Numbered from the stretch's first letter, positions 2,661 through 60,453 are shown. The stretch: DNA of 64,000 bases from a virus (IMGVR_UViG_2671180676_000004:1-64000), one strand, 5' to 3'. The notes: generated by a model not told the origin, from the sequence alone. Numbers and translations are program-made.

Positions 2661-3086
2661 ATGTTAGGTTTATTCAAAAAGAAAACTCGTAAAGCTGTTA
2701 TCGAGGTCAAAAAAATGGAGAACCGAGATGCGGTTGAAGCCACCGTGTGGGGCGCGTACATGATCTCCTATGCCGATGGCACATGCGACGCAAAGGAAAT
2801 TTCCATTCTTGAGAAAACAATTGCAGCTCTGCCTGCGTTTTCTCCGTTTGCTGGTGAGATTGCCCAAATGAGCGCCAATATCCGTGCTCAATACGAAGCC
2901 TCACCGCGCCGCGCTAATGCCCAGGCTTTACGTGAGCTGGCTGATGTGGCCGGGACTAATGATGCAGTAGATGTACTGTGTCTGTGCCTTGATATTGCCG
3001 ACCAAGACGGTATTGGCGAACAAGAAGAGCTGGCCCTGAAAAAGATCGCACAGGCGCTTCAGTTGTCACTGGATGCTTATCTCTAA
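2661..3086 (+). CDS. TerB-like domain protein
   Basis: Two repeats of the h-x-ADG … E-E-L pattern (YMISYADGTCDAKEIS / CLDIADQDGIGEQEEL) typical of the TerB fold; SD AAAGGAAAG. Confidence 0.5.
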   Translation: MLGLFKKKTRKAVIEVKKMENRDAVEATVWGAYMISYADGTCDAKEISILEKTIAALPAFSPFAGEIAQMSANIRAQYEASPRRANAQALRELADVAGTNDAVDVLCLCLDIADQDGIGEQEELALKKIAQALQLSLDAYL

Positions 3087-3365: not shown

Positions 3366-3383
3366 AAGCATTAGGAAAAACAC

Positions 3384-3953
3384 ATGTGCAAGAAATGCAA
3401 AGCGATAGCTGATGAACAAAACGCCTTATTCGAAGAAATGGATGCTAATGAACTGGTCAAAATGTTAGCCATTCTTCGAGGAATAGAAGACGTTTCCATA
3501 TTTGAGAGAGTGGTTACAGCACTTAATTTTGAGTCCACCTTTGAAGAGCCAACTCAGGTTGTAGCTTTAGCACATCATTTCGGTGTTCATTATCTTGCTG
3601 AAAAAGAGCGCGCTGATAAGTTGCAGGCGACTTTGGATATGGTGAGCGAGACTCAACGAACTGATGACACTAACAAGAGTGAGGCGATTATTGCCAGCAA
3701 AGATCGTGAAATTGCTGGGCTTAAATCCTCTCTAACGATGTTGATGTCTGCGTTCAATCTTATATCTTCTCAGGCGGGTTATAAAATGCCATCACTAAAC
3801 AGCGATGATCCGATGGCCGTTCGTCAGCTTTTGGGAGCAATGGCCGACCAACTCGACGACACAAAGAGTCGGCTTGAAGACATGATGCGTGAGTTAAGCC
3901 ATCGACATAACCTCGCAACACAGCCACACAAAGCCTTTCAAAGCTCTAATTGA
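3384..3953 (+). CDS. Hypothetical protein (189 aa)
   Basis: ORF with SD-like AGGAAA; followed by hairpin tatggccg…cggccata at 3959-3980. Confidence 0.5.
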   Translation: MCKKCKAIADEQNALFEEMDANELVKMLAILRGIEDVSIFERVVTALNFESTFEEPTQVVALAHHFGVHYLAEKERADKLQATLDMVSETQRTDDTNKSEAIIASKDREIAGLKSSLTMLMSAFNLISSQAGYKMPSLNSDDPMAVRQLLGAMADQLDDTKSRLEDMMRELSHRHNLATQPHKAFQSSN

Positions 3954-48617: not shown

Positions 48618-51600
48618 TTGAACATGGAACAGTTCAAGAAGAAAAAGCTACCGCTGTTTATTGCCGGTGCGGGTGGTAAAAAAAGCAGCAAAAGCTCCAG
48701 CCGTACACCGGTTGAAGCCGACGATACCGTAAATTCTCGTGCAATGGCCGCTATCCTCGATCTTCTTGGGGAAGGGGTAATTGGCGGCTTAGTAAATGGC
48801 GCAAGATCTATTTTTATCGACGATCTGCCGATTGTAAATGAAGACGGTTCCTCCAACTTCAGCGGAATCACATGGGATTTTCGCGACGGTTCACAAGACC
48901 AGACTCCAATGTCTGGCTTTGATTTCGTTGAAACGCCTAAATCCGTCAATATCCAGTTAAAAAAAACACATTATGTAACGGTTTCAATCGATAACGATGA
49001 AGCTGATCGGGTTCGTGTCATCATGAAGTTTCCTTCTTTGCGAAGCATAGATAAAAAAACTGGTGACACGAACGGTACGACTGTTGAGTACAAGTTCCAG
49101 ATAGCAAATGGCGACTCAACATTTGTAGATGTGGTCGCGGAAGGTGAAAAAAGCGTTGGCATTAAGCTAACAGCAAAGAAGACCGGCGTTTATTACCGTA
49201 GCTACGAGCTGAAGCTGCCTAAGCCTGGACGCGCATACAAGGTTCGTGTAGTCCGTATTACCGATGATAACAGTAGCCAGTATCTCTATAACGATACATG
49301 GGTGGATTCAATCGGGGAAATTGTCGATACACCGATGAACTATCCAAACTCTGTTTTGGTTGGATTGAAGGTAAACTCTGAGCAATTCGGCAGCACCATG
49401 CCATCTCGCTCTTATCTGGTGCGTGGCCTAAAAATTCGAGTACCTTCAAACTATAACGAGTCCAGTAACACTTACGCTGGGGTATGGGATGGTACTTTTA
49501 AGCTGTTGTCTTCTTCGAACCCCGCGTGGATTCTCTTTGATTTGCTGACCAATGCTCGATATGGCCTTGGTCAGTATGTGTCGGAATCTATGATTGACCT
49601 TGGCCAGTTGTACCAGATTGGTCGATATTGTGACGAAGAGGTCGATGATGGCTTTGGTGGCAAAGAGAAACGCTTTGCAATCAATACGCAGATCACCAGT
49701 CGACAGGACGCATACCGGCTAATTCAGGATATTGCTGGAGCATTCCGCGGCATGGTGTTTTGGGCTGGTGGGATGGTTAACATCATGCAGGATAGCCCAT
49801 CAGATCCGGTAATGATGTTTACCAACTCCAACGTCAAAGATGGATTGTTTACCTATAAAGGTTCTGCGCGTAAAGATCGCCCATCCGTTGCGCTCGTAAC
49901 CTACAACAACAAGGAGGACGGTTATAAGCAAAACATCGAGTACGTCGAAGATCAGGACGCAATGCGCCGTTATGGTGAGCGTAAAACAGAAGTCGTAGCA
50001 TTTGGCTGTACAAGCCGAGGGCAGGCTCACCGAGTTGGTTTGTGGCTTTTATATACCGCCAGAATGGAGTCGGATGTAATTACATTTACTGCCGGCTTAG
50101 ACGCGTCATTTCTGATGCCTGGTGAAACCGTTCTGATTCAGAACAAATATCGCGCAGGCAAACGTAACTCAGGTCGAATTGTGGCGTTTACCAAAAACAG
50201 CGTCACACTCGATGCGCCTGTGTCGTTAGCCAAAGGCGGCTGCTTTATTCGAATACTGAATAAGGAAGGCAAAATCGTTGAACGCGATGTTCTTGAAACT
50301 GGCGAAAATATAACAAAAGTTACGTTTTCAAAAGCCCTGTCTTCGGCTGAAACGCCTGTTTTGAACGGCGTCTGGACTATTACAGAACCAGACCTCGAAC
50401 CTATGCGCGTTCGCATCGTTAACATCGCGCAGGGGGAAACGCCGGGTAGCTTTGACATCACCGCTGTTGAGAACAATCCGTCTAAATATGAGGCGATCGA
50501 CAATGGTGCAACGCTTATCCCTCAAAATACGACGGTATTGGACCCGACTTACTCCAAGCCGTCTAATTTGCAAATCACCGAAGGGACTTATCTCTCAAGC
50601 CCTGGCAACCTGTCAGTAAAACTGACTGCAACATGGGAAGGGAAATCTCCAGAGTATTGGATCAGTTGGCGACGTTCTGATGAAAACAATGTATCGAACT
50701 GGCAATCGGCGCGTGTAACCGAAGAGCAATACGAAATCGTTAATGTTGCGGAGAATGGACGCTACGACTTCCAGCTGTATGCGGTTTCATTCAACGGTAA
50801 AAAAACAGAGATTATCAGTACCGTTTATCAGGTGCTGGGCACAATGACACCGCCAGATGCCCCAACGTCATTAACGGCCGTTGGAGACTATCGTAATGTG
50901 ATACTGAATTGGGTTAATCCAGATTCGGTAGACCTTGATCACATTAATGTTTACGCATCCCAGACCAACAATCTGGATACGGCGAAACTGATCGCAGAGT
51001 CTGCAAGCACCACCTTTACACATGCTGGTCTTGGGGATAGCGAAACGTGGTATTACTGGGTTCGAGCATCGAACAAGCGAGGTATGTTAAGTCCTCCGAA
51101 CTCAAACTTGGGTACAGAGGCGACAACTCGCGATGTACTGTCGTTCCTGACTGGCAAAATTACATCTTCCGAGCTTGGTCAGGCTCTGCTTGAGGACATC
51201 AACAGCAAAGTCTCTCAAGAAGCAGTTGACGAGTTAAATGAGCATATCAACCAGAGCGTCGAATCTTTGGAGGGGTCGGTAAACGACGTTAAGGAAGATA
51301 TAGCTGAATTAGATAAGCAGTTCAGCGATAACCTCGCGGATTTTGAAATAAAATTCAACGAGCGTAGCGATGCTTTGGAGAACGCACAAACCGAGCTTAA
51401 AGGTGAGGTTTCGGCAACGATCGACAAGGTCAATGAAGCGTTTGAAAAAATTGATGCTACTGATGCTGCAATTGTTGAAATCGAAAACACCGTATCTGAA
51501 CACGATAAAGCTCTCGCTAATACAGTCGAGGCAATAAAGGCTGCAAGAGATGAAGCGGCGGCTCTTATTGCTAAGGAAAGCGAGGCTCGTGTTGAAGGCG

Positions 51601-53351
51601 ATGCTGCAAACGCTAAACAATTGGAAGTGTTGCAGTCAACGGTAGAGGAAAGCTCCGCTGCCGTTGAAGAAATGAAAAAGACGGTTGCAGAGGTCGATCG
51701 TGCAAGTGCAGAACTGACTACGAACATTGAGGCTTTGGCCAAAACAAATATTGACCTGGCTCTTCGTCAAGATGAAGACCAGCACAAGCAGATGGTCAAT
51801 AACGCGAAGATCGCAACAACACAGAAAACCTTTGCTGATGATATGTCTGCAATGGCCACGAAGGTTGAGGAAATTCGCGTAGAAATTGGCGAAGACATTA
51901 AGGCCAGTATTCTGGAAGAGTCCACCGCTCGTGCCGATGGCGATGAAGCGTTGGCAAAGCGTGTCACTCAGCTGCAATCTAAGTTTGAAGGAGATATCAG
52001 CGCGGCGATTAGTACAGAGCAGGAGGCTCGTACATCTGCCGATGAAGCTCTGACGACACAGATCACTCAGCTTGAGTCGAAAGTAAGCAACGATATCGTC
52101 GCAGCTATTAAGGAAGAGCAAGAAGCCCGAGCAACGGAAGATTCGGCTCTGGCAAGCCAGATCACCCAACTTCAGGCAAAGGTTGATGATGATATTTCTG
52201 CTGCAATACGTAGTGAGCAGGAGGCCCGAGCAAGCGGGGACTCTGCGTTAGCCAAACAAATAAACCAGCTTCAGTCAAAGGTTGACGGTGATATATCCGC
52301 GGCCATCACTCAGGAGCAGGAGGCCAGAGCAAGTGCTGACCAGGCGCTCTCACGAGAAATTAACAGCCTGCGAGCACAAACCGGAACTGATATTGCCGCA
52401 GCGGTTGCTGTAGAGACAAAAGCAAGGACTGATGCCGATAGTGCATTGTCTACCCAGATTACGTCTCTTACAGCAAAAGCTAATGATCTCGAGGCGTCTC
52501 TTGCCAGAGAAACAACGGCTCGTGCAGATGGTGATACCGCTTTAACAAAAGAGGTTTCAAGTTTAAAAGCACAGACAGCGAAAGATATTAGTGCGGCCGT
52601 TGCAGTTGAAACGCAGGCTCGAACTGATGCTGACTCGGCGTTGTCGTCTCAGATCACCAAGCTGACCTCTCAATACAAAGAGGATATTAAAGCGGCTGTA
52701 GCAACCGAAACGAAAACGCGTACAGAGCAAGATGCTGCATTGGCGACTCAAATCACAAACTTAGAGTCTCAAACGGCAGCCAACATTTCCGCGGCGGTCA
52801 CAACTGAAACGACAGCGAGAACGCAGGCAGATAATGCTCTGAGTGGGCGAATCGATACTCTGAAAGCAGAGGTGAATGGAAATACCGCGACAATTCAACA
52901 GCAGGCAACAGCTATTGCTGATACCAACAAAAAAGTGTCAACCGCGTGGACGTTGAAAATGGAGACTTCAACGAGCGGAGGGCAGAAGTATATTGCCGGT
53001 ATTGCGCTTGGTATTGACACCACTGGGCTATCTCAGTTTTTGGTTCAGGCGGACAGGTTTGGTTTGGTCAACTCTGTTAACGGGAAGATCACAACGCCAT
53101 TTGTTATCGAAAACAGTATCGCCTATATGAATGGAGCGTATATCAAGGATGGCACAATCACCAATGCAAAAGTAGGCGATCTGCAATCTACCAATTTTGT
53201 TAGCGGTAGATCTGGATGGCGGTTCGGCAAAAATGGAACGCTTGAGATCAACGGTAATAGCGGCGGCAATGGGCGATTGGTTATAAATGGTCAGCGGATT
53301 GACGTTTATGACGATAACAACGTCCTACGAGTAAGAATTGGCCGTCTGTGA
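48618..53351 (+). CDS. Host-specificity / central tail fibre protein J-like
   Basis: 1577 aa; N-terminus J-like; central run of about ten 29-aa heptad-type repeats. Confidence 0.85.
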   Translation: MNMEQFKKKKLPLFIAGAGGKKSSKSSSRTPVEADDTVNSRAMAAILDLLGEGVIGGLVNGARSIFIDDLPIVNEDGSSNFSGITWDFRDGSQDQTPMSGFDFVETPKSVNIQLKKTHYVTVSIDNDEADRVRVIMKFPSLRSIDKKTGDTNGTTVEYKFQIANGDSTFVDVVAEGEKSVGIKLTAKKTGVYYRSYELKLPKPGRAYKVRVVRITDDNSSQYLYNDTWVDSIGEIVDTPMNYPNSVLVGLKVNSEQFGSTMPSRSYLVRGLKIRVPSNYNESSNTYAGVWDGTFKLLSSSNPAWILFDLLTNARYGLGQYVSESMIDLGQLYQIGRYCDEEVDDGFGGKEKRFAINTQITSRQDAYRLIQDIAGAFRGMVFWAGGMVNIMQDSPSDPVMMFTNSNVKDGLFTYKGSARKDRPSVALVTYNNKEDGYKQNIEYVEDQDAMRRYGERKTEVVAFGCTSRGQAHRVGLWLLYTARMESDVITFTAGLDASFLMPGETVLIQNKYRAGKRNSGRIVAFTKNSVTLDAPVSLAKGGCFIRILNKEGKIVERDVLETGENITKVTFSKALSSAETPVLNGVWTITEPDLEPMRVRIVNIAQGETPGSFDITAVENNPSKYEAIDNGATLIPQNTTVLDPTYSKPSNLQITEGTYLSSPGNLSVKLTATWEGKSPEYWISWRRSDENNVSNWQSARVTEEQYEIVNVAENGRYDFQLYAVSFNGKKTEIISTVYQVLGTMTPPDAPTSLTAVGDYRNVILNWVNPDSVDLDHINVYASQTNNLDTAKLIAESASTTFTHAGLGDSETWYYWVRASNKRGMLSPPNSNLGTEATTRDVLSFLTGKITSSELGQALLEDINSKVSQEAVDELNEHINQSVESLEGSVNDVKEDIAELDKQFSDNLADFEIKFNERSDALENAQTELKGEVSATIDKVNEAFEKIDATDAAIVEIENTVSEHDKALANTVEAIKAARDEAAALIAKESEARVEGDAANAKQLEVLQSTVEESSAAVEEMKKTVAEVDRASAELTTNIEALAKTNIDLALRQDEDQHKQMVNNAKIATTQKTFADDMSAMATKVEEIRVEIGEDIKASILEESTARADGDEALAKRVTQLQSKFEGDISAAISTEQEARTSADEALTTQITQLESKVSNDIVAAIKEEQEARATEDSALASQITQLQAKVDDDISAAIRSEQEARASGDSALAKQINQLQSKVDGDISAAITQEQEARASADQALSREINSLRAQTGTDIAAAVAVETKARTDADSALSTQITSLTAKANDLEASLARETTARADGDTALTKEVSSLKAQTAKDISAAVAVETQARTDADSALSSQITKLTSQYKEDIKAAVATETKTRTEQDAALATQITNLESQTAANISAAVTTETTARTQADNALSGRIDTLKAEVNGNTATIQQQATAIADTNKKVSTAWTLKMETSTSGGQKYIAGIALGIDTTGLSQFLVQADRFGLVNSVNGKITTPFVIENSIAYMNGAYIKDGTITNAKVGDLQSTNFVSGRSGWRFGKNGTLEINGNSGGNGRLVINGQRIDVYDDNNVLRVRIGRL

Positions 53352-53444: not shown

Positions 53445-56400
53445 ATGTGGTACAGGGAAGGTACTATCACATTTACACAGGGTAGCAATACTCTGGTTGG
53501 GGCAGGGACAGCCTGGAACGTAACAGCTAATGGTGTGTTGCCGGGGATGATCGTCATTGGCCCCGACAATAAGCTGTATGAGATCAAGCGCGTAATAAGC
53601 GATACGAATATTGTTCTCTCAGAACCTTATACCGGCGAAACTCAGTCTGAGGTTCCGTGCCGAATCATTACGACCTATGAAGGCGACTTAACACAGTTTA
53701 GCGCGCGCTTTACAGCACTAATGTCGCGTATGTCGGCTGATTCCAAGTCTATGCGCAGTTGGTTGACTGCTCTGGATGAGGTGACAATCGAGCGTGAAGA
53801 CGGTACAGAAGTAACCGTTAAGCCGCTAATGCAGATCGTCAACGAGCACAACGAAAACGTTGAGTGGTATAAAAATAACACTGACGCGATTGATGCTGCT
53901 GGCGACAAAGCTCGTGAGGCGGCGGCCAGTGCTGCCGCAGCAGCAGAAAGCGCCAATACCGCTGGAGAAAAAGCCTCTCAAGCGTCTCAAAGTGCATCCG
54001 CTGCGGCATCCTCACAAAGTGCCGCAAGTGCGAGTGCAACTGCTGCGAAAAAATCTGAAACGAATGCCGCAGCGTCACAACAATCAGCAGCCACTTCTGC
54101 ATCCACCGCGACCACGAAAGCGTCAGAAGCTGCCACCTCAGCCCGGGATGCGGCGGCCTCAAAAGAGGCAGCGAAATCATCAGAAACGAGCGCAGCCTCG
54201 AGCGCCAGTAATGCCGCTTCCTCGGCAACGGCGGCAGGAAATTCCGCGAAGGCGGCAAAAACGTCCGAGACGAACGCCAGGTCTTCTGAAACGGCAGCGG
54301 GACAGAGCGCCTCGGCTGCGGCAGGCTCAAAAACAGCGGCTGCGTCGTCTGCCAGTGCCGCGTCAACAAGTGCCGGGCAGGCCTCAGCCAGTGCCACCGC
54401 CGCCGGAAAATCGGCAGAAAGTGCCGCATCGTCTGCTTCAACAGCCACAACGAAGGCTGGCGAAGCCACTGAACAGGCCAGCGCAGCAGCGAGGTCTGCT
54501 TCCGCAGCGAAGACATCCGAAACGAACGCGAAAGCGTCGGAAACCCGTGCAGAATCCTCAAAAACGGCAGCCGCATCGTCCGCCAGTTCGGCAGCGTCAT
54601 CGGCATCATCGGCGTCTGCTTCAAAAGATGAGGCGACCAGACAAGCGTCCGCAGCGAAGGGCAGCGCCACGACAGCATCCACGAAAGCAACAGAGGCGGC
54701 AGGCAGTGCGACGGCAGCATCTCAGAGCAAAACTGCTGCTGAATCCGCTGCGACCCGTGCGGAAGCTGCTGCTGATCGTGCTGAAGAGATTGCCGGTGCA
54801 GTTGCGATGGAAGATGCAAGCCTTACCACCAAAGGTGTTGTGAAACTTAGCAGTGCTGTCGACAGCACCAGTGAATCTTTAGCCGCGACACCAAAAGCAG
54901 TTAAGACCGCATATGATAATGCTGAAAAACGACTACAGAAGGATCAGAATGGTGCTGATATCCCCGACAAGGGCCGCTTCCTGAATAACATTAATGTTTA
55001 CAGCAAAGGTGAAGTGGATCAGAAAAAGGGGATGCGATACGTTGTGGTCAATGCCCCGGCGGGTGTCCAGGAAGGTAAATATTATCCGTTAGTGATAAAA
55101 AGGAATGACAGCCATCGGGCATCCCGCGTTGTCATTTCAACGCCAAGTCGCACAGCTAATCACAGAATGAATAACTGTGAGTTTAATGGTTTTGTTTGCG
55201 CAGGCGGCTGGACGGACCGGGGTAGCTATGCCTGTGGTATGTTCTGGGCTTATTCATCATCGGAACGCGCTATTCATTCCATTCTGATGAGTAATAAAGG
55301 CGATACCGTAGACAGCGTATTCTATATAGAAGGTGGGGCATTTCCCGTAGAGGTCTTTTTAGAAGAAGGACTTTCTGTTACTGCTCCTGCTTCTGATTAT
55401 GTTGTTGCTGAAACGACTTATAAATTTGGCGCAACTGATCCTTATTCTGAATCAGTTGCGGTAAATTTAATTTTAGATTTTAAACAAGGTAATGGATTTT
55501 ATAGTTCGTATCCTGTTTTGAGTAAGTCAGACATTAGCGGTAATAAGGTTTACGCTAATGATGAAGTTATTGTCCGTAGTCAGAATGCGTTAAGGATGAT
55601 TGCTGGCGATTACGGTGTCATATGGCGAAATGATGGAGCAAATACTTACTTGCTCATGACTGATAAAGGCGACCAGTACGGTGGCTGGAACGGTCTTCGA
55701 CCATTTGCAGTAAATAACGCAACAGGTGAAGTGACGATCAATACACCACTTAATTCTCCAAAAGGGGTTAAGGGGAACTCTGATACAGCTACGAAACTTC
55801 AGACTGCAAGAAAAATATCCGGTGTTCCATTTGATGGCTCTACTGATATCACTTTAACCGCCGCGCATGTTGCCGCTTTCGCAAGAAGAGCAACAGGGTC
55901 ATATGCTGATGCTGATGGCGGCGTGCCGTGGAATGCTGAATCTGGTGCTTATAATGTAACTAGAACGGGCGACAGTTATATTCTTGCCAACTTTTATACT
56001 GGTGTAGGTAGTTGCCGTACGCTTCAAATTAAGGCTCACTATAAAAATGGTGGGTTGTTTTATCGTTCATCTCGCGATGGAAGTGGTTTTGAAAGTGGTT
56101 GGGAGCAGGTTTACACGACTGGATTTAGACCTCAGCCGGCTGATATAAACGCACCAACCGCTGCCGCCGGATGGTTAAATAGTGGTAACGGAACAGCATT
56201 TACGACTGCTCAGTTTATAACGTGGCTAAATAATCAGGGTGCATTTTCAAACAAATATTGGATTGCACGGTGCTCATGGACTTACGCCAACAATAATTAT
56301 ATAGACGACACTGGATGTGGCAGGATCGATCTATCTGGTTCCGTGATTGAGGTGTTTAGTAATAAGTCAACAAGCCACTACACTATTCGTGTTACAACGA

Positions 56401-57734
56401 CAACAACATCGGGCCATGGTGGTGTTAATAATGCGGAGTTTATTTATGTGTACAATGGCAGTGATTACTCGCCAGGCTGGCGTCGTTCTTATAATACTAG
56501 AAACAAACCAACAGCTTCTGATGTAGGAGCATTATCGCTTTCTGGAGGAGCGTTAACTGGCGGATTAACTGCTGCTGGCGAGATTATTTCAAAATCGGCG
56601 AATGGTCTGCGCATTGCCTACGGAAACTACGGATTCTTTATCCGAAACGATGGTTCAAGCACATACTTCATGTTGACCGATTCGGGTAACAGCCTGGGAA
56701 CCTATAATAGTTTAAGGCCGCTTATCATTAACAATGCCAATGGTGCTGTTAGGATCGGTAATGGACTCAATGTTACTGGCGGCATCAATGGTAGTTTGGA
56801 CGGTAATGCTTCAACAGCTACGAAGTTGCAAACAGCGAGAAACATCAATGGTGTTAAGTTTGATGGTTCAGGCGATATCAATATTAATACATTGGTATCT
56901 CGTGGCCGAGTTACGGCGTTAAGCGGCTCTACTCAAGGCACTGCTGGCATTCAAATGTATGAGGCGTACAACAATAGCTACCCGACCATGTATGGCAACG
57001 TATTGCACATGAAAGGTGCGAGTGCTGCTGGTGAGGGAGAGTTGCTTATTGGCTGGAGTGGTACGAGCGGTGCACATGCGCCAGTTTTCATTCGCTCACG
57101 AAGAGATAACACAGGTGCGGCATGGTCAGCGTGGGCGCAGGTATATACCGCTAAGGATTCAATCCCTGGTGTGAATACAACTGGTAATCAGAACACTACT
57201 GGTAATGCCGCAACCGCCACAAAATTGCAGACAGCAAGGAAAATTGCTGGTGTGGCATTTGATGGCTCTGCCGATATAACTTTGACTGCGGCTAACCTTA
57301 ATGCTTACACGAAAACAGAGGTAACAAACCTTCTAAGTTCCTATGTGAAGAGCAGTGCTCTTCCAAGCATGACTGTGCGAACTTCCTCTGTTTCAGGTGG
57401 GGATATGGGCATGAGCTTGTCCGCATTCATTAGCCACCTAAAATCAAATGGGGCGTTTAGCAAAAGTTATTGGATTGGCTTTGGCGATGCTATGGGATTC
57501 AATGCTGGCAGTATCAACAATATAACGGGATTTGGTGCTGTAGAATTAGCAGAATCTATAATCGAAGTTTTTAATCTACCTAACGGTGATTATACAATTC
57601 GTTTAACAACGTCACATAAAGCTGACTACGGTGGAGTTACAAACGCAATCCTCGTTTATCACTACCGTAGTAATAGAAGTCCGTCAGGTCAATGGCTGAA
57701 ATTTGCAGGTACTGTTGGGGCAACAAGTAACTGA
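53445..57734 (+). CDS. Side tail fibre protein
   Basis: 1429 aa; long Ala/Ser-rich segment; fibre motif ATPKAVKTAYD; three ATKLQTAR(K/N)I.GV.FDGS.DI repeats. Confidence 0.8.
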   Translation: MWYREGTITFTQGSNTLVGAGTAWNVTANGVLPGMIVIGPDNKLYEIKRVISDTNIVLSEPYTGETQSEVPCRIITTYEGDLTQFSARFTALMSRMSADSKSMRSWLTALDEVTIEREDGTEVTVKPLMQIVNEHNENVEWYKNNTDAIDAAGDKAREAAASAAAAAESANTAGEKASQASQSASAAASSQSAASASATAAKKSETNAAASQQSAATSASTATTKASEAATSARDAAASKEAAKSSETSAASSASNAASSATAAGNSAKAAKTSETNARSSETAAGQSASAAAGSKTAAASSASAASTSAGQASASATAAGKSAESAASSASTATTKAGEATEQASAAARSASAAKTSETNAKASETRAESSKTAAASSASSAASSASSASASKDEATRQASAAKGSATTASTKATEAAGSATAASQSKTAAESAATRAEAAADRAEEIAGAVAMEDASLTTKGVVKLSSAVDSTSESLAATPKAVKTAYDNAEKRLQKDQNGADIPDKGRFLNNINVYSKGEVDQKKGMRYVVVNAPAGVQEGKYYPLVIKRNDSHRASRVVISTPSRTANHRMNNCEFNGFVCAGGWTDRGSYACGMFWAYSSSERAIHSILMSNKGDTVDSVFYIEGGAFPVEVFLEEGLSVTAPASDYVVAETTYKFGATDPYSESVAVNLILDFKQGNGFYSSYPVLSKSDISGNKVYANDEVIVRSQNALRMIAGDYGVIWRNDGANTYLLMTDKGDQYGGWNGLRPFAVNNATGEVTINTPLNSPKGVKGNSDTATKLQTARKISGVPFDGSTDITLTAAHVAAFARRATGSYADADGGVPWNAESGAYNVTRTGDSYILANFYTGVGSCRTLQIKAHYKNGGLFYRSSRDGSGFESGWEQVYTTGFRPQPADINAPTAAAGWLNSGNGTAFTTAQFITWLNNQGAFSNKYWIARCSWTYANNNYIDDTGCGRIDLSGSVIEVFSNKSTSHYTIRVTTTTTSGHGGVNNAEFIYVYNGSDYSPGWRRSYNTRNKPTASDVGALSLSGGALTGGLTAAGEIISKSANGLRIAYGNYGFFIRNDGSSTYFMLTDSGNSLGTYNSLRPLIINNANGAVRIGNGLNVTGGINGSLDGNASTATKLQTARNINGVKFDGSGDININTLVSRGRVTALSGSTQGTAGIQMYEAYNNSYPTMYGNVLHMKGASAAGEGELLIGWSGTSGAHAPVFIRSRRDNTGAAWSAWAQVYTAKDSIPGVNTTGNQNTTGNAATATKLQTARKIAGVAFDGSADITLTAANLNAYTKTEVTNLLSSYVKSSALPSMTVRTSSVSGGDMGMSLSAFISHLKSNGAFSKSYWIGFGDAMGFNAGSINNITGFGAVELAESIIEVFNLPNGDYTIRLTTSHKADYGGVTNAILVYHYRSNRSPSGQWLKFAGTVGATSN

Positions 57735-57854
57735 TTTAGACATTATTTATATGGCTGTGAGGTTTAAAATGCGATCTCACAGCCGCAATCATAGGGATAT
57801 ATTAGTGAGTTACTAGATACGAATTTGAACAGCCGTTAAACGGTATATACATAG

Positions 57855-57874
57855 ATAGGTAAGTATATACCTAT
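57855..57874. repeat. Motif B palindrome (ataggtaagtatatacctat)
   Basis: 7-bp arms ATAGGTA/TACCTAT; tail fibre/lysis junction. Confidence 0.5.
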
Positions 57875-57936
57875 AATTGAAAGGAGAAGTGTGATATAAA
57901 TCCGCCATCCCGATTTGACTTTTCATGGAGGAAAAC

Positions 57937-58260
57937 ATGTCGAACGAGATGGCGGGCGTTACAACAGAGCAAGTTGAGCGTATAGCCGCGATCGTTGCTC
58001 GGGAGGTTGTTGGCAAATTAGGTAAAGAGCTACGTGAAGAAATTGGCCAGGAGGTCAATGATCAGCTGAAAACCTACTTTGGTGATATGACCCCGGCGCA
58101 ACATAGTATTCAACACTCCAATCTGGACAAACTCCTTAACCGGTTAGATTCCATCTCAAGTGGGTTCTTTGGCGGCATTGTTTCTAAAATAACGTCGTTC
58201 ATTATTACCGCACTGCTTTTGGGGTTAGCCGCGTATGGCGTAAAAAGTGGACTGCAATAA
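57937..58260 (+). CDS. Putative holin-like protein with one C-terminal TM helix
   Basis: ATG 57937 with SD GGAGG; TM FIITALLLGLAAYGV; first gene of the lysis cassette. Confidence 0.35.
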   Translation: MSNEMAGVTTEQVERIAAIVAREVVGKLGKELREEIGQEVNDQLKTYFGDMTPAQHSIQHSNLDKLLNRLDSISSGFFGGIVSKITSFIITALLLGLAAYGVKSGLQ

Positions 58261-58273
58261 CAGGAGATCAAGG

Positions 58274-58966
58274 ATGAAGACTCCGAGAGGCATTCGTAAT
58301 AATAACCCCGGTAATCTTGATAAAGGATCACCGTGGCAAGGTCTGGTTGCGAATCCAGACGAACCGCGCTTTTGCACGTTTAAAGACCCTGTTTGGGGGA
58401 TTCGTGCGCTGGCGGTGACTCTAATTACCTACCACGATAAACGTCGCGCAAAAGACGGCACAAGTATCGATACCATTCGTGAAGTTATTGAACGCTGGGC
58501 ACCGCCGAATGAAAACAATACTGACGCCTACATTAATGAGGTGTCTAAAGCCGTTGGTGTAACCGCAGACATGATCATCGATCTGCATGATTACGACATC
58601 CTTCGACCTTTGGTTGAGGCAATCATTCGCCACGAGAATGGCCGAGGCCCGCTAAAAACGCTGAACACCTGGTATGCGGCAGAAGTTATTGAGGAAGGTC
58701 TGCGTCGAGCTGGCGTTGTTAAGCCGGTGAAAACCGTGAAGGCTGTTCCTGTAACTAAAGAAACCGCAGGCGCAACTGTTACAGCAGGTATTGGTCTGGC
58801 GCAGCTGGCCGATGTTATGCCGCAGGTTTCCGCTGCTATGGATAAAGCACAAGGTCATATCTCTAGCGGGGATACAGTACGCATCATCTTCGGTATTGCC
58901 ACTATTGTTGTGGCAGGATTCATTGCCTGGTCGCAGGTAAGAAAACATCAGAAAGGGATGGTCTAA
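58274..58966 (+). CDS. Putative lysis protein / candidate endolysin (family unassigned)
   Basis: Sits between holin-like and spanin genes; motif GIRNNNPGNL; C-terminal hydrophobic segment IFGIATIVVAGFIAW. Confidence 0.4.
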   Translation: MKTPRGIRNNNPGNLDKGSPWQGLVANPDEPRFCTFKDPVWGIRALAVTLITYHDKRRAKDGTSIDTIREVIERWAPPNENNTDAYINEVSKAVGVTADMIIDLHDYDILRPLVEAIIRHENGRGPLKTLNTWYAAEVIEEGLRRAGVVKPVKTVKAVPVTKETAGATVTAGIGLAQLADVMPQVSAAMDKAQGHISSGDTVRIIFGIATIVVAGFIAWSQVRKHQKGMV

Positions 58967-58967
58967 T

Positions 58968-59219
58968 ATGCTAGGCAGCCTGATGACAAAGCTAAAAGTT
59001 GCTTTGATTACGCTGGCTGCCGTTCTTTTCGTTCTTGTCGGCGCTTACACGATGGGCGGGAATGCGGCGCGACGAGCAATGGAAGAGAAGGCAAAACAGG
59101 AAGACAGAAAACGACTTCAAAGCACAGTGGAAGTGGTGAATGAGACGAGCAATAAAATACGTCAGAAAGATGCTTCTGCCGTTCATCGTGAGTTGTATGA
59201 TAAGTGGGTGCGTCATTAA
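58968..59219 (+). CDS. i-spanin (Rz-like)
   Basis: N-terminal TM VALITLAAVLFVLVGAY then charged helical periplasmic part. Confidence 0.6.
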   Translation: MLGSLMTKLKVALITLAAVLFVLVGAYTMGGNAARRAMEEKAKQEDRKRLQSTVEVVNETSNKIRQKDASAVHRELYDKWVRH

Positions 59220-59386: not shown

Positions 59387-59908
59387 TTATTCTTCGAACA
59401 ATTTTTCGATAGATTTTGTAGGATAGAACAAAGAACGCTCGTTGTTACCAACCAGCTGGATAAAGCCTAAACTTTTATAAAACGCCTTGGCTTTGTCATT
59501 TAACGCCTCAACGAAAAGTCCATGAATGCCTACAGCAAGAGATGCATTGTACACAACGCGCATTGCATGTGTTACAAGCATTGAGCCAAATCCTTGACCT
59601 TGAAGGGACTTGTCCAAAGCCAGCCTACCCAAAGTAACACTTGGAACATTCCGATAAGGTACCTTCTTTTGCTGGCTTCTTGAAGGTAAGGACTCCTTTT
59701 CAAAGCAGCTGCCTGACAAAGTGTAATACCCTAACACTTTTGGTCTGTCTTCTTTCGTGAAAAGCACATAAGCGCGAAGAATTTTTCCCTCATGCTGCCT
59801 TTTTAAGTGGTTGGTTAAAAAGGCATTTAGTGATTCTTCACCGCAATCAAAACCATTCAAATCATAATCTTTCTCTCCAGAGAAAATTTCTATCTTTATA
59901 TTATCCAC
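59387..59908 (-). CDS. GNAT-family tRNA-acetylating toxin (AtaT/ItaT/TacT-like)
   Basis: 173 aa; strong resemblance to remembered AtaT (…DYDL..FDCGEE.LN.FLT.HL.RQH…ILRAY.L…VLGYYTL.GSCFE…LPS.S.QKK.PY.N.PSVTLGRLA.D.SLQGQG…GIHGLFVEALN.KA..FYKSLGF). Confidence 0.8.
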   Translation of the reverse strand: MDNIKIEIFSGEKDYDLNGFDCGEESLNAFLTNHLKRQHEGKILRAYVLFTKEDRPKVLGYYTLSGSCFEKESLPSRSQQKKVPYRNVPSVTLGRLALDKSLQGQGFGSMLVTHAMRVVYNASLAVGIHGLFVEALNDKAKAFYKSLGFIQLVGNNERSLFYPTKSIEKLFEE

Positions 59909-59915
59909 GAGTAAA

Positions 59916-60185
59916 CTACTCCATGCTTTTCAGACGATCAGCAGCTCGTTTCAGCTTGTCGTTCGGTGCCGGAGGATTGCTTATAGCGTCCATAACCAGA
60001 TTCCAGGATTCTTCATTCAGAACTAGTCTACGGTGTTGCTCTATAACTTTCACGGCACGTTCAGATGCACTGCTAACCATAAACTGAGTAATGCTCTGGT
60101 TAGACATTGCGGCAGCTTCCTCGATGATGCTTTTATCGTCATCGGTTAATCTCAAATCGATGCGCTGCTTTTTTAGTGCTGACAT
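59916..60185 (-). CDS. DUF1778 (RHH) antitoxin, AtaR-like
   Basis: …KKQRIDLRLTDDDK…NQS..QFM..SAS.RA..VIEQHRR..LNEESW…NPP.P..KLKRAA.RL; ATG 60185 with SD AGGAGG; 7 nt upstream of the toxin. Confidence 0.8.
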   Translation of the reverse strand: MSALKKQRIDLRLTDDDKSIIEEAAAMSNQSITQFMVSSASERAVKVIEQHRRLVLNEESWNLVMDAISNPPAPNDKLKRAADRLKSME

Positions 60186-60453
60186 GTATTCCTCCTGATG
60201 GCCGTGATGTAGGAAGGCCATCAATCTCCTCTGTTCAAACTGAGTTTTCGACTCAAAAATTACTTTAAAAGGCTATAGCCCATTACGTGTGCATTATCAA
60301 ATTGTGTACGGCATATCACCGTACTTGTAATATAGAGGTCATTGTTACTTTTTTCAACAGACAAATACAAGCTATGATTGCCAATTGTTAATCACAACCT
60401 ACCATTTAACCTTTACACCGCAGCCGTAGGCATTTAGGCTATATCACATATAA

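Follow-up and report, generated by a model that had tools for sequence, protein, structure and literature searches.

Tail-fibre mosaicism with conserved junction motifs has reportedly been known since the early 1990s, and is said to have been described by Haggard-Ljungquist in 1992 and by Sandmeier in 1994. In phage Mu, the distal half of the fibre protein S' is the host-range-variable part, and Mu also possesses an invertible segment and the U/U' chaperones. Engineered lambda side tail fibre (Stf) chimeras with foreign distal parts are functional (PMC11338833), and gp34 and gp12 of T4 contain an alpha-beta fibrous repeat with a Gly and Thr-Pro signature (PMC5537660). Here we compare with these systems a side tail fibre gene carried in 64,000 nucleotides (nt) of viral DNA (IMGVR_UViG_2671180676_000004:1-64000; “the window” means this whole stretch), where the entire feature of interest lies within one open reading frame (ORF) of 1429 amino acids (aa) (Table 1). 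An original prediction, made from the sequence, had proposed a side tail fibre with an “all-frames-open” Ala/Ser segment and three receptor-domain repeats. It now seems quite likely that the ORF encodes a modular side tail fibre, arranged as beads on a string, in which connectors lie between swappable domains and the terminal domain, B', is the likeliest tip.

The ATKLQTAR connector and the cassettes around it

The motif ATKLQTAR occurs three times, exactly as predicted, at aa 782, 1125 and 1258 (window positions 55788, 56817 and 57216), within a pattern common to all copies (GN..TATKLQTAR.I.GV.FDGS.DI, with 20 invariant residues over 39 columns). When aa 471-1429 were shuffled, any 8-mer was found twice in 1 of 2000 shuffles and three times in none of the 2000. 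In relatives a 40-aa unit (ATKLQTARTIGGVSFDGSANINLPGVNTAGNQNTTGNAAT) opens with the motif and often occurs as two to four tandem copies, and the three copies in the window (connectors M1 to M3) match its consensus. A profile built from these three copies matched 13,912 cluster representatives (clusters at 50% identity) at a threshold of E≤1e-3, and 3,711 when the threshold was set at E≤1e-10; a single protein could contain as many as 15 stretches. Among nine sampled matches, five carried Gp34_trimer (one of these also Phage_fiber_2) and another carried repeated BppL_N (lower baseplate protein) alone. Neither Pfam (E≤10) nor NCBIfam holds a curated model for the motif, a full-text literature search for “ATKL” together with tail fibre returned nothing, and a single-sequence search of the PDB with the motif returned noise alone.

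Against solved structures, the connector profile had a sole match, to residues 98-133 of phage L Dec (E 3e-4). That stretch of Dec is a three-stranded intertwined spike; nearly all contacts within the trimer come from it, and in the monomer it is unfolded (PMC6449081, PMC11398494). By analogy, the connector may be a trimer-interlocking element between knobs.

The comparison set consisted of 67 IMG/VR loci encoding the same N-terminal anchor, and architecture strings were compiled for 49 distinct fibres (the 45 of at least 500 aa being shown) and for 14 database proteins. Same-anchor fibres range from 717 to 1647 aa, carry from zero to seven connectors and have many different C-termini; when the proteins were cut at their connectors and the pieces clustered, combinatorial reuse was found. 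Beyond its collar, the present fibre has the order X - G1 - M1 - A - B - G2 - M2 - A' - M3 - B'. In relatives (with m for any connector), the slot after the collar holds X G, Y, B or X, the slot after the first connectors holds A B, B, A' B or A', the slot after G-m holds A', A or a Mu-like A, and the end slot holds B', a tip bearing the Peptidase_S74 chaperone, a lambda-type Collar tip or others; across the architecture strings, every slot has alternative cassettes. The fibre of P0056, for example, is 98% identical to the present one as far as about aa 1300, beyond which it has a different tip, one with the Peptidase_S74 chaperone (also present in L016, L034, L045, L003 and L026), L017 has the same B' tip without A-B-G2, and L015 ends in NIAFNYIVRLA like a lambdoid tip and carries the Pfam Collar domain. 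The idea that modules are stacked and are shuffled among relatives is well supported by this variation, and a fixed single architecture clearly does not apply.

The same pattern is visible in the DNA, where edges of homology to relatives fall at gene nt 2341, 3370, 3705-3721 and 3901, compared with connector starts at gene nt 2344, 3373 and 3772; the commonest junction among complete genomes is that at gene nt 3901. The original prediction had treated the repeated element as a receptor domain; its distribution among sequences instead identifies it as the core of a widespread connector of about 40 aa between swappable domains, and not as a receptor-binding domain. Modules of the distal half were found in 1177 phage records, from phages that presumably span both myoviruses and siphoviruses, including T4-type phages, Mu/D108, Felix O1-like phages and phage 9g.

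The three DNA copies of the motif are 72-78% identical and differ mostly at synonymous positions, and we conclude from this bias that constraint acts on the protein. As three direct repeats (67-106 nt long and 399-1428 nt apart) whose unit number varies in relatives, they might also be regarded as substrates for intragenic recombination, generating length or specificity variants in a manner resembling phase variation. This is very unlikely: at 72-78% identity a mismatch occurs every few bases, leaving no perfect run long enough for RecA to recombine efficiently, and none of the near-identical alleles from 11 complete genomes has lost part of the architecture.

Homology of the modules to Mu S/S' and to P1 S could likewise suggest a system in which tips are exchanged in a programmed way, as by the invertible G segment of Mu or C segment of P1, and the modules had indeed been thought open to “alternative” use. 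We regard such a system as extremely improbable here, since there is no second, inverted fibre-end gene, the holin follows 190 nt downstream, no flanking inverted repeats exist beyond a 32-nt match of 78%, and an inserted insertion sequence (IS) element accounts for the additional fibre DNA that lies downstream in L014. No invertible segment, inverted repeats, inverted second cassette or internal stop was found at the fibre; no scan of the window for an invertase gene was made.

Two fibre genes with insertions deserve mention. In L014 (9817-11090), the fibre gene is split by two intervening ORFs, of 136 aa and 301 aa, of the kind found in IS elements; the fibre DNA downstream of them was considered as an alternative cassette, and rejected because the IS-type ORFs split the gene. 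L018 likewise has a short fibre ORF followed by further fibre DNA. The fibre gene in NZ_OZ501609.1 contains an annotated IS2-family insertion. In relatives with a Peptidase_S74 tip, we also observed an extra ORF of 202 aa, with no Pfam match, between the fibre and the holin (L009:11614-12222).

Table 1. Features of the side tail fibre gene, with positions in the window, strand, extent in the protein, and basis or comparison
Feature	Position	Strand	Extent or character	Basis or comparison
Side tail fibre gene	53445..57734	+	1429 aa plus stop	single ORF (ORF list), PHROG families, database identity
N-terminal anchor domain	53445..53879	+	aa 1-145	SSU5-type phage-plasmid specific; 78-100% identical in 63 of 67 IMG/VR loci
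Ala/Ser heptad rod	53895..54794	+	aa 151-450	43 uninterrupted heptads x-A-x-x-S-A-T/S
Collar, Phage_fiber_2 repeat	54819..54941	+	aa 459-499	PF03406, E 7e-21
Domain X, unclassified	54990..55514	+	aa ~516-690	no Pfam or PDB sequence match
Knob G1, Gp34_trimer-like copy 1	55518..55769	+	aa 692-775	PF21446 (two stretches); 46% identical to G2
Connector M1	55773..55862	+	GNSDTATKLQTARKISGVPFDGSTDITLTA	homology to L009 and L021 from gene nt 2341, against an M1 start at nt 2344
Domain A, gp37_C-like	55875..56168	+	aa ~811-908	PF12604, E 3e-7; Mu S' residues 324-421 (PDB 8JU3)
Domain B	56169..56480	+	aa ~909-1012	Mu S' residues 202-326 (PDB 8JU3), stretch E 6e-35; no Pfam model
Knob G2, Gp34_trimer-like copy 2	56523..56798	+	aa 1027-1118	PF21446, best stretch aa 996-1095
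Connector M2	56802..56891	+		homology to L016 from gene nt 3370, against an M2 start at nt 3373
Domain A', unclassified	56892..57161	+	aa 1150-1239	no Pfam or PDB match; sits in the slot of A-type domains in relatives
Connector M3, full unit	57162..57314	+	PGVNTTGNQNTTGNAAT + ATKLQTARKIAGVAFDGSADITLTAANLNAYTK	flanking junctions at gene nt 3705-3721 and 3901
Terminal domain B'	57342..57731	+	aa 1300-1429	40% identical to B; Mu S' residues 215-304, E 1.2e-8
Spurious ORF, frame +1	53860..54843	+	327 aa	openness reproduced by codon shuffles
Spurious antisense ORF, frame -2	53839..54819	-	326 aa	open in the present allele only
Spurious antisense ORF, frame -1	53987..54682	-	231 aa	PGAP “hypothetical protein” WP_061358313.1; openness reproduced by codon shuffles

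The Ala/Ser rod and its extra reading frames

The segment between anchor and collar had been described as very low in complexity, and in composition it is: of the 325 residues at aa 146-470, 71% are Ala (123), Ser (73) or Thr (35), and the GC content of the DNA is 0.55-0.63 compared with about 0.42-0.49 in the flanks. It is not featureless, however, since the heptads at aa 151-450 form a strict array of 43 with no register shift (Ala at position 1 in 43/43, Ser at position 4 in 33/43) and the autocorrelation at lag 7 is 0.41; a tandem repeat in the DNA of the segment was looked for, and none was found. A single-sequence AlphaFold2 (AF2) model of aa 121-500 is nearly all helix (mean predicted local distance difference test score, pLDDT, 72.7), and the segment would thus form a rod of about 45 nm that is alpha-helical and probably a trimeric coiled coil. 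The rod is common to lambdoid Stf genes, at 85-92% DNA identity.

Four of the six frames of this segment are open for 244-325 codons and the other two contain 12 and 16 stops, so the segment has long ORFs on both strands, as the original prediction had noted, without being open in all frames. That the segment conceals a genuine second gene, antisense or in a different frame, could be argued from three observations: the frame -1 ORF is called by the Prokaryotic Genome Annotation Pipeline (PGAP), frame -2 contains 2 stops versus 12.3 +/- 2.5 in synonymous shuffles (0/2000 as low), and the trinucleotide CTA is absent. We find this exceedingly hard to accept. Of 847 substitutions that separate the segment from its counterparts in relatives, 576 (68%) hit the third codon position of the fibre frame, frames +1 and -1 are equally open in codon shuffles, and in relatives with a 77%-identical rod frame -2 is interrupted by 7 stops and frame -1 by 4; frame -2 is therefore not conserved, and the fibre frame is the sole frame open across all relatives.

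The openness of frame -2 is due to the total absence of CTA from the present allele. In the window at 53880-54854, CTA is wholly missing where about 10 are expected, none of the 38 codons ending in CT precedes a codon starting with A, and T|A codon junctions number 4 versus 19.5 expected. Elsewhere in the window CTA is depleted merely about 2-fold, and the depletion is not common to relatives whose DNA has diverged. Judged by the substitutions, the shuffles and the stops in relatives, the extra ORFs are spurious, as had been suspected.

Spurious ORFs of this kind are not harmless: they mislead PGAP, the gene is truncated as a result, and the heptad rod repeatedly breaks automatic annotation. 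On the identical plasmid, RefSeq/PGAP calls the frame -1 ORF as a protein and moves the start of the fibre coding sequence (CDS) to window position 54807 (54807-57734, 975 aa). For the identical sequence, the truncated form of 975 aa is found on 84 contigs and the full form of 1429 aa on 14, and most database homologues of the fibre begin at MEDASLTTKG.

Genomic setting and the likely tip

The fibre gene is 100% identical to that of the E. coli plasmid pUTAK-6-1, its top phage matches are the E. coli phages Cyrano and CMS-2020a (about 108 kb), and its N-terminal 515 nt are 78% identical to the DNA of Salmonella phage SSU5. From these matches we conclude that, by sequence, the window is an SSU5-type phage-plasmid of E. 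coli and the gene its side tail fibre. The identification as a side tail fibre, already proposed, agrees with the J-type neighbour, the matching PHROG tail-fibre families, the anchor and the collar. The anchor is 40-55% identical in the remaining 4 of the 67 IMG/VR loci, and outside the anchor the fibre is variable. Of 5426 complete E. coli genomes, just 11 cover the gene to at least 80%, but 4131 contain matches to parts of it.

Upstream lies an ORF for a J-type tail-tip protein (48618-53351, 1577 aa, with Phage_Tail_Tip and FNIII-A_GpJ) that ends 94 nt before the fibre start, and downstream lie the holin (190 nt after the fibre), endolysin and Rz genes, named as annotated in Cyrano; gene order around the fibre is the same in Cyrano and SSU5. 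No Pfam match to the Tfa chaperone was found in the ORFs following the fibre (window 57735-59219; the next are holin, endolysin and Rz), no adhesin gene follows in the ORF list, and a Pfam scan of the fibre protein found no Peptidase_S74 (PF13884) intramolecular chaperone. In relatives, a Tfa, an adhesin or an intramolecular chaperone accompanies other tips.

Distally, the collar aligns to residues 105-173 of Mu S and S' and bears the Gly and Thr-Pro signature; T4 gp34 gave no alignment to this region. From the signature, the collar may be the alpha-beta fibrous repeat of T4 gp34/gp12. Domain X has about 175 aa with several Cys and Trp, and in relatives its place is taken by B or by Y, an unrelated domain present in many of them. 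The fibre protein scores 196.9 bits against PF21446 (Gp34_trimer; cut-off 27) over two stretches, and knob G2 aligns to T4 gp34 1023-1115 and Mu S 234-339 and has 85% DNA identity to P1 S. The gp37_C-like match is internal (aa ~823-916), not C-terminal. Overall, the fibre matches PDB 8JU3 (Mu S') at E 5e-71, some of its modules being homologous to the distal half of S', the half beyond the collar that is common with Mu S. The domains that follow the three motifs are Gly/Ser/Thr/Ala/Asn-rich. They differ from one another, as the original prediction had it, but the last, B', is not entirely distinct, being a paralogue of the internal B (40% identity, E 3e-16 in a segment-against-segment BLAST). 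Alternates in the A slot were seen in P0023, P0031 and P0038. A homology between A and A' was considered and dropped, as hhalign aligned just 22 C-terminal columns (probability 32%).

Taken together, these data suggest the following picture of the modular fibre. The protein would be a siphovirus side tail fibre, presumably a homotrimer, that serves as a virion protein mediating adsorption. The anchor would attach it near the J tail tip, followed by the helical rod and the Phage_fiber_2 collar. By analogy with residues 99-134 of phage L Dec, connectors M1 to M3 may fold only in the trimer, as an intertwined three-stranded spike that locks the register between adjacent knobs. If all fibres of this type bear the same connector, chimeras joined at it would stay foldable, and we propose that it is for this reason that relatives differ by connector-bounded whole cassettes. 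The internal A, B, A' and G domains would be at least shaft knobs, and B' the likeliest receptor-binding tip, with no need of an adjacent chaperone gene. The gp38-like adhesin of SSU5 is reported to bind the lipopolysaccharide (LPS) core; because of SSU5 and the Gifsy-1 Stf (PMC12312913), our guess would be that the receptor of B' is an LPS-core sugar.

Several points weigh against this reading. Some junctions lie away from connectors, after the collar (gene nt 1460-1593), inside or adjoining B (gene nt 2927-3028), and at the A|B boundary (aa 904); the excess at connectors, judged over about 10 junction classes, is of modest significance (a rough binomial estimate gives ~0.02), and BLAST ends are biased towards conserved stretches. 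As judged from the alignments, connectors are favoured, not exclusive, exchange junctions. The C-terminus of Dec is itself modelled at low resolution. An AF2 monomer of aa 776-1429 (alignment of 13 sequences) was unusable (mean pLDDT 35.5; predicted template modelling score, pTM, 0.22), and domain boundaries were drawn from the sequence alone. Fibres of this type usually come with a chaperone gene, and here there is none. Lastly, B' is probably the receptor-binding tip as judged from its terminal position, but its homologue in Mu S' is internal.

It is also conceivable that several functional receptor-binding modules (A-B, A' and B') stand in series, with additive or alternative specificities. 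In its favour, the distal half of Mu S' has homologues in A and B, and B' is homologous to the same domain as B; relatives carry alternative cassettes in every slot, also in the internal ones, as would be expected of host-range determinants; and A'-type and A-type domains alternate in one slot. We nevertheless consider it unlikely. The M1-A unit (about 92% protein identity) stands upstream of a separate lambda/gp37-type tip in PhiR30_1, so the families that follow the motif are not all receptor-tip domains as had been supposed; L017 retains B' without A-B-G2, and the internal modules are therefore dispensable for the B' tip; no switching device for alternative use of modules was found; and the cassette variation may equally be neutral. 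A related version, in which the internal A-B and the sub-terminal A' would be active glycan sites (two to three specificities in series, lateral and at the tip, without a genetic switch) and the chaperone-less B' a self-folding type of adhesin, we hold to be somewhat more doubtful again; if true, adsorption would be widened or stabilised. The beads-on-a-string fibre with B' as its tip remains our preferred explanation.

Three further observations concern the gene and its surroundings. The J-type protein contains, at aa ~1100-1420 (window ~51900-52900), an array of 33-aa repeats (..DISAAI..EQEAR..AD.AL..QI..L..K; lag-33 identity 0.32) that looks like a long coiled-coil insertion ahead of the Phage_Tail_Tip domain. 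Within the fibre coding sequence, window 55421-55469 contains a 19-nt inverted repeat (89% complementary, 11-nt loop) that is probably due to chance. Just past the lysis genes, 59387-60224 on the minus strand encodes a GNAT acetyltransferase and a DUF1778 partner, annotated in Cyrano as KacT toxin and putative antitoxin.

Significance and comparison with described fibres

The present allele is one more combination of a well-known mosaic fibre type, and the exact 1429-aa protein is already public under the name “phage side tail fiber protein”; this is textbook tail-fibre mosaicism, and biologically little is changed. The connector, in turn, is among the commonest fibre elements (about 13,900 clusters at 50% identity) and has neither a Pfam or NCBIfam model nor a fibre structure. 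With a model of it, fibre domains could be parsed better, and those who engineer chimeric fibres would have natural splice points marked out. Fibre segments are exchanged between SSU5-type phage-plasmids and lambdoid prophages, with about 90% DNA identity, and this exchange bears on host-range prediction for phage-plasmids that carry resistance genes.

Among fibres of known structure, Mu S' (gp52; PDB 8JU3, credited to Mori et al. 2024 where it is cited in PMC11821841) and Mu S (5YVQ) have homologues of the present collar, B (S' 202-326), A (S' 324-421) and Gp34_trimer knob (S 234-339). The order in S' is B-A, whereas that in the present fibre is A-B, and the B-homologous domain of S' is internal, whereas B' is terminal here; neither the S nor the S' chain matched the connector profile. 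The Mu fibre, moreover, is that of a myovirus and has about 500 aa, compared with 1429 aa in the present siphovirus fibre. T4 gp34 (PDB 4UXE, 5NXF; PMC5537660) has the Gp34_trimer knob that occurs twice in the present fibre, and the two share the design of a triple beta-helix punctuated by knobs; gp34, however, is one of four proteins of a jointed fibre, forms no tip and has no match to the ATKLQTAR connector. Phage L Dec, the sole solved chain that matches the connector profile, is a capsid decoration protein with a single, C-terminal copy. In the T-even gp37 + gp38 type, a C-terminal gp37_C is followed by an adhesin gene, whereas the gp37_C-like domain of the present fibre is internal and no adhesin gene follows; PF13884, C-terminal in the T5 pb1/endosialidase type, is absent here.

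Lambdoid Stf proteins (Ur-lambda type; PhiR30_1, Turner, mEp460) have the same role downstream of J, with a different N-terminal anchor. The Stf of PhiR30_1 shares the heptad rod, collar, X, G1, M1 and A with the present fibre (aa 356-904) at about 88-92% identity. After A, it has a tip with repeated His-x-His motifs ending in NIAFNYIVRLA, followed by a Tfa gene, whereas the present fibre continues with B-G2-M2-A'-M3-B' and has no Tfa; the M1-A unit is thus sub-terminal in the one and internal in the other. The PhiR30_1 Stf (L071:2968-6361) is annotated as three CDSs, and its frame changes at the collar (...ALEDASTTKKG followed by a stop), which indicates a frameshift, a sequencing error or a mis-annotation.

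Closest of all in setting are the fibres of the SSU5-type phages. SSU5 gp21 has an anchor of the same family (84% protein identity), one connector, A'-like and B-like domains and a Gp34_trimer knob, but it ends in a Peptidase_S74 chaperone and is accompanied by a separate gp38-like adhesin, gp22, neither of which the present fibre has. The Cyrano fibre CYRAN_21, like other SSU5-type E. coli phage-plasmid fibres, has the same gene position, anchor and Ala/Ser rod, and likewise is followed by the holin, with no chaperone gene; its DNA is 98% identical to gene nt 1-1460 and 96% identical to the terminal M3-B' cassette. Between these two regions the fibres part ways: Cyrano has Y - m m m - B (58%) - G - m - A (81%), with five connectors and 1341 aa in all, where the present fibre has X - G - m - A - B - G - m - A'.

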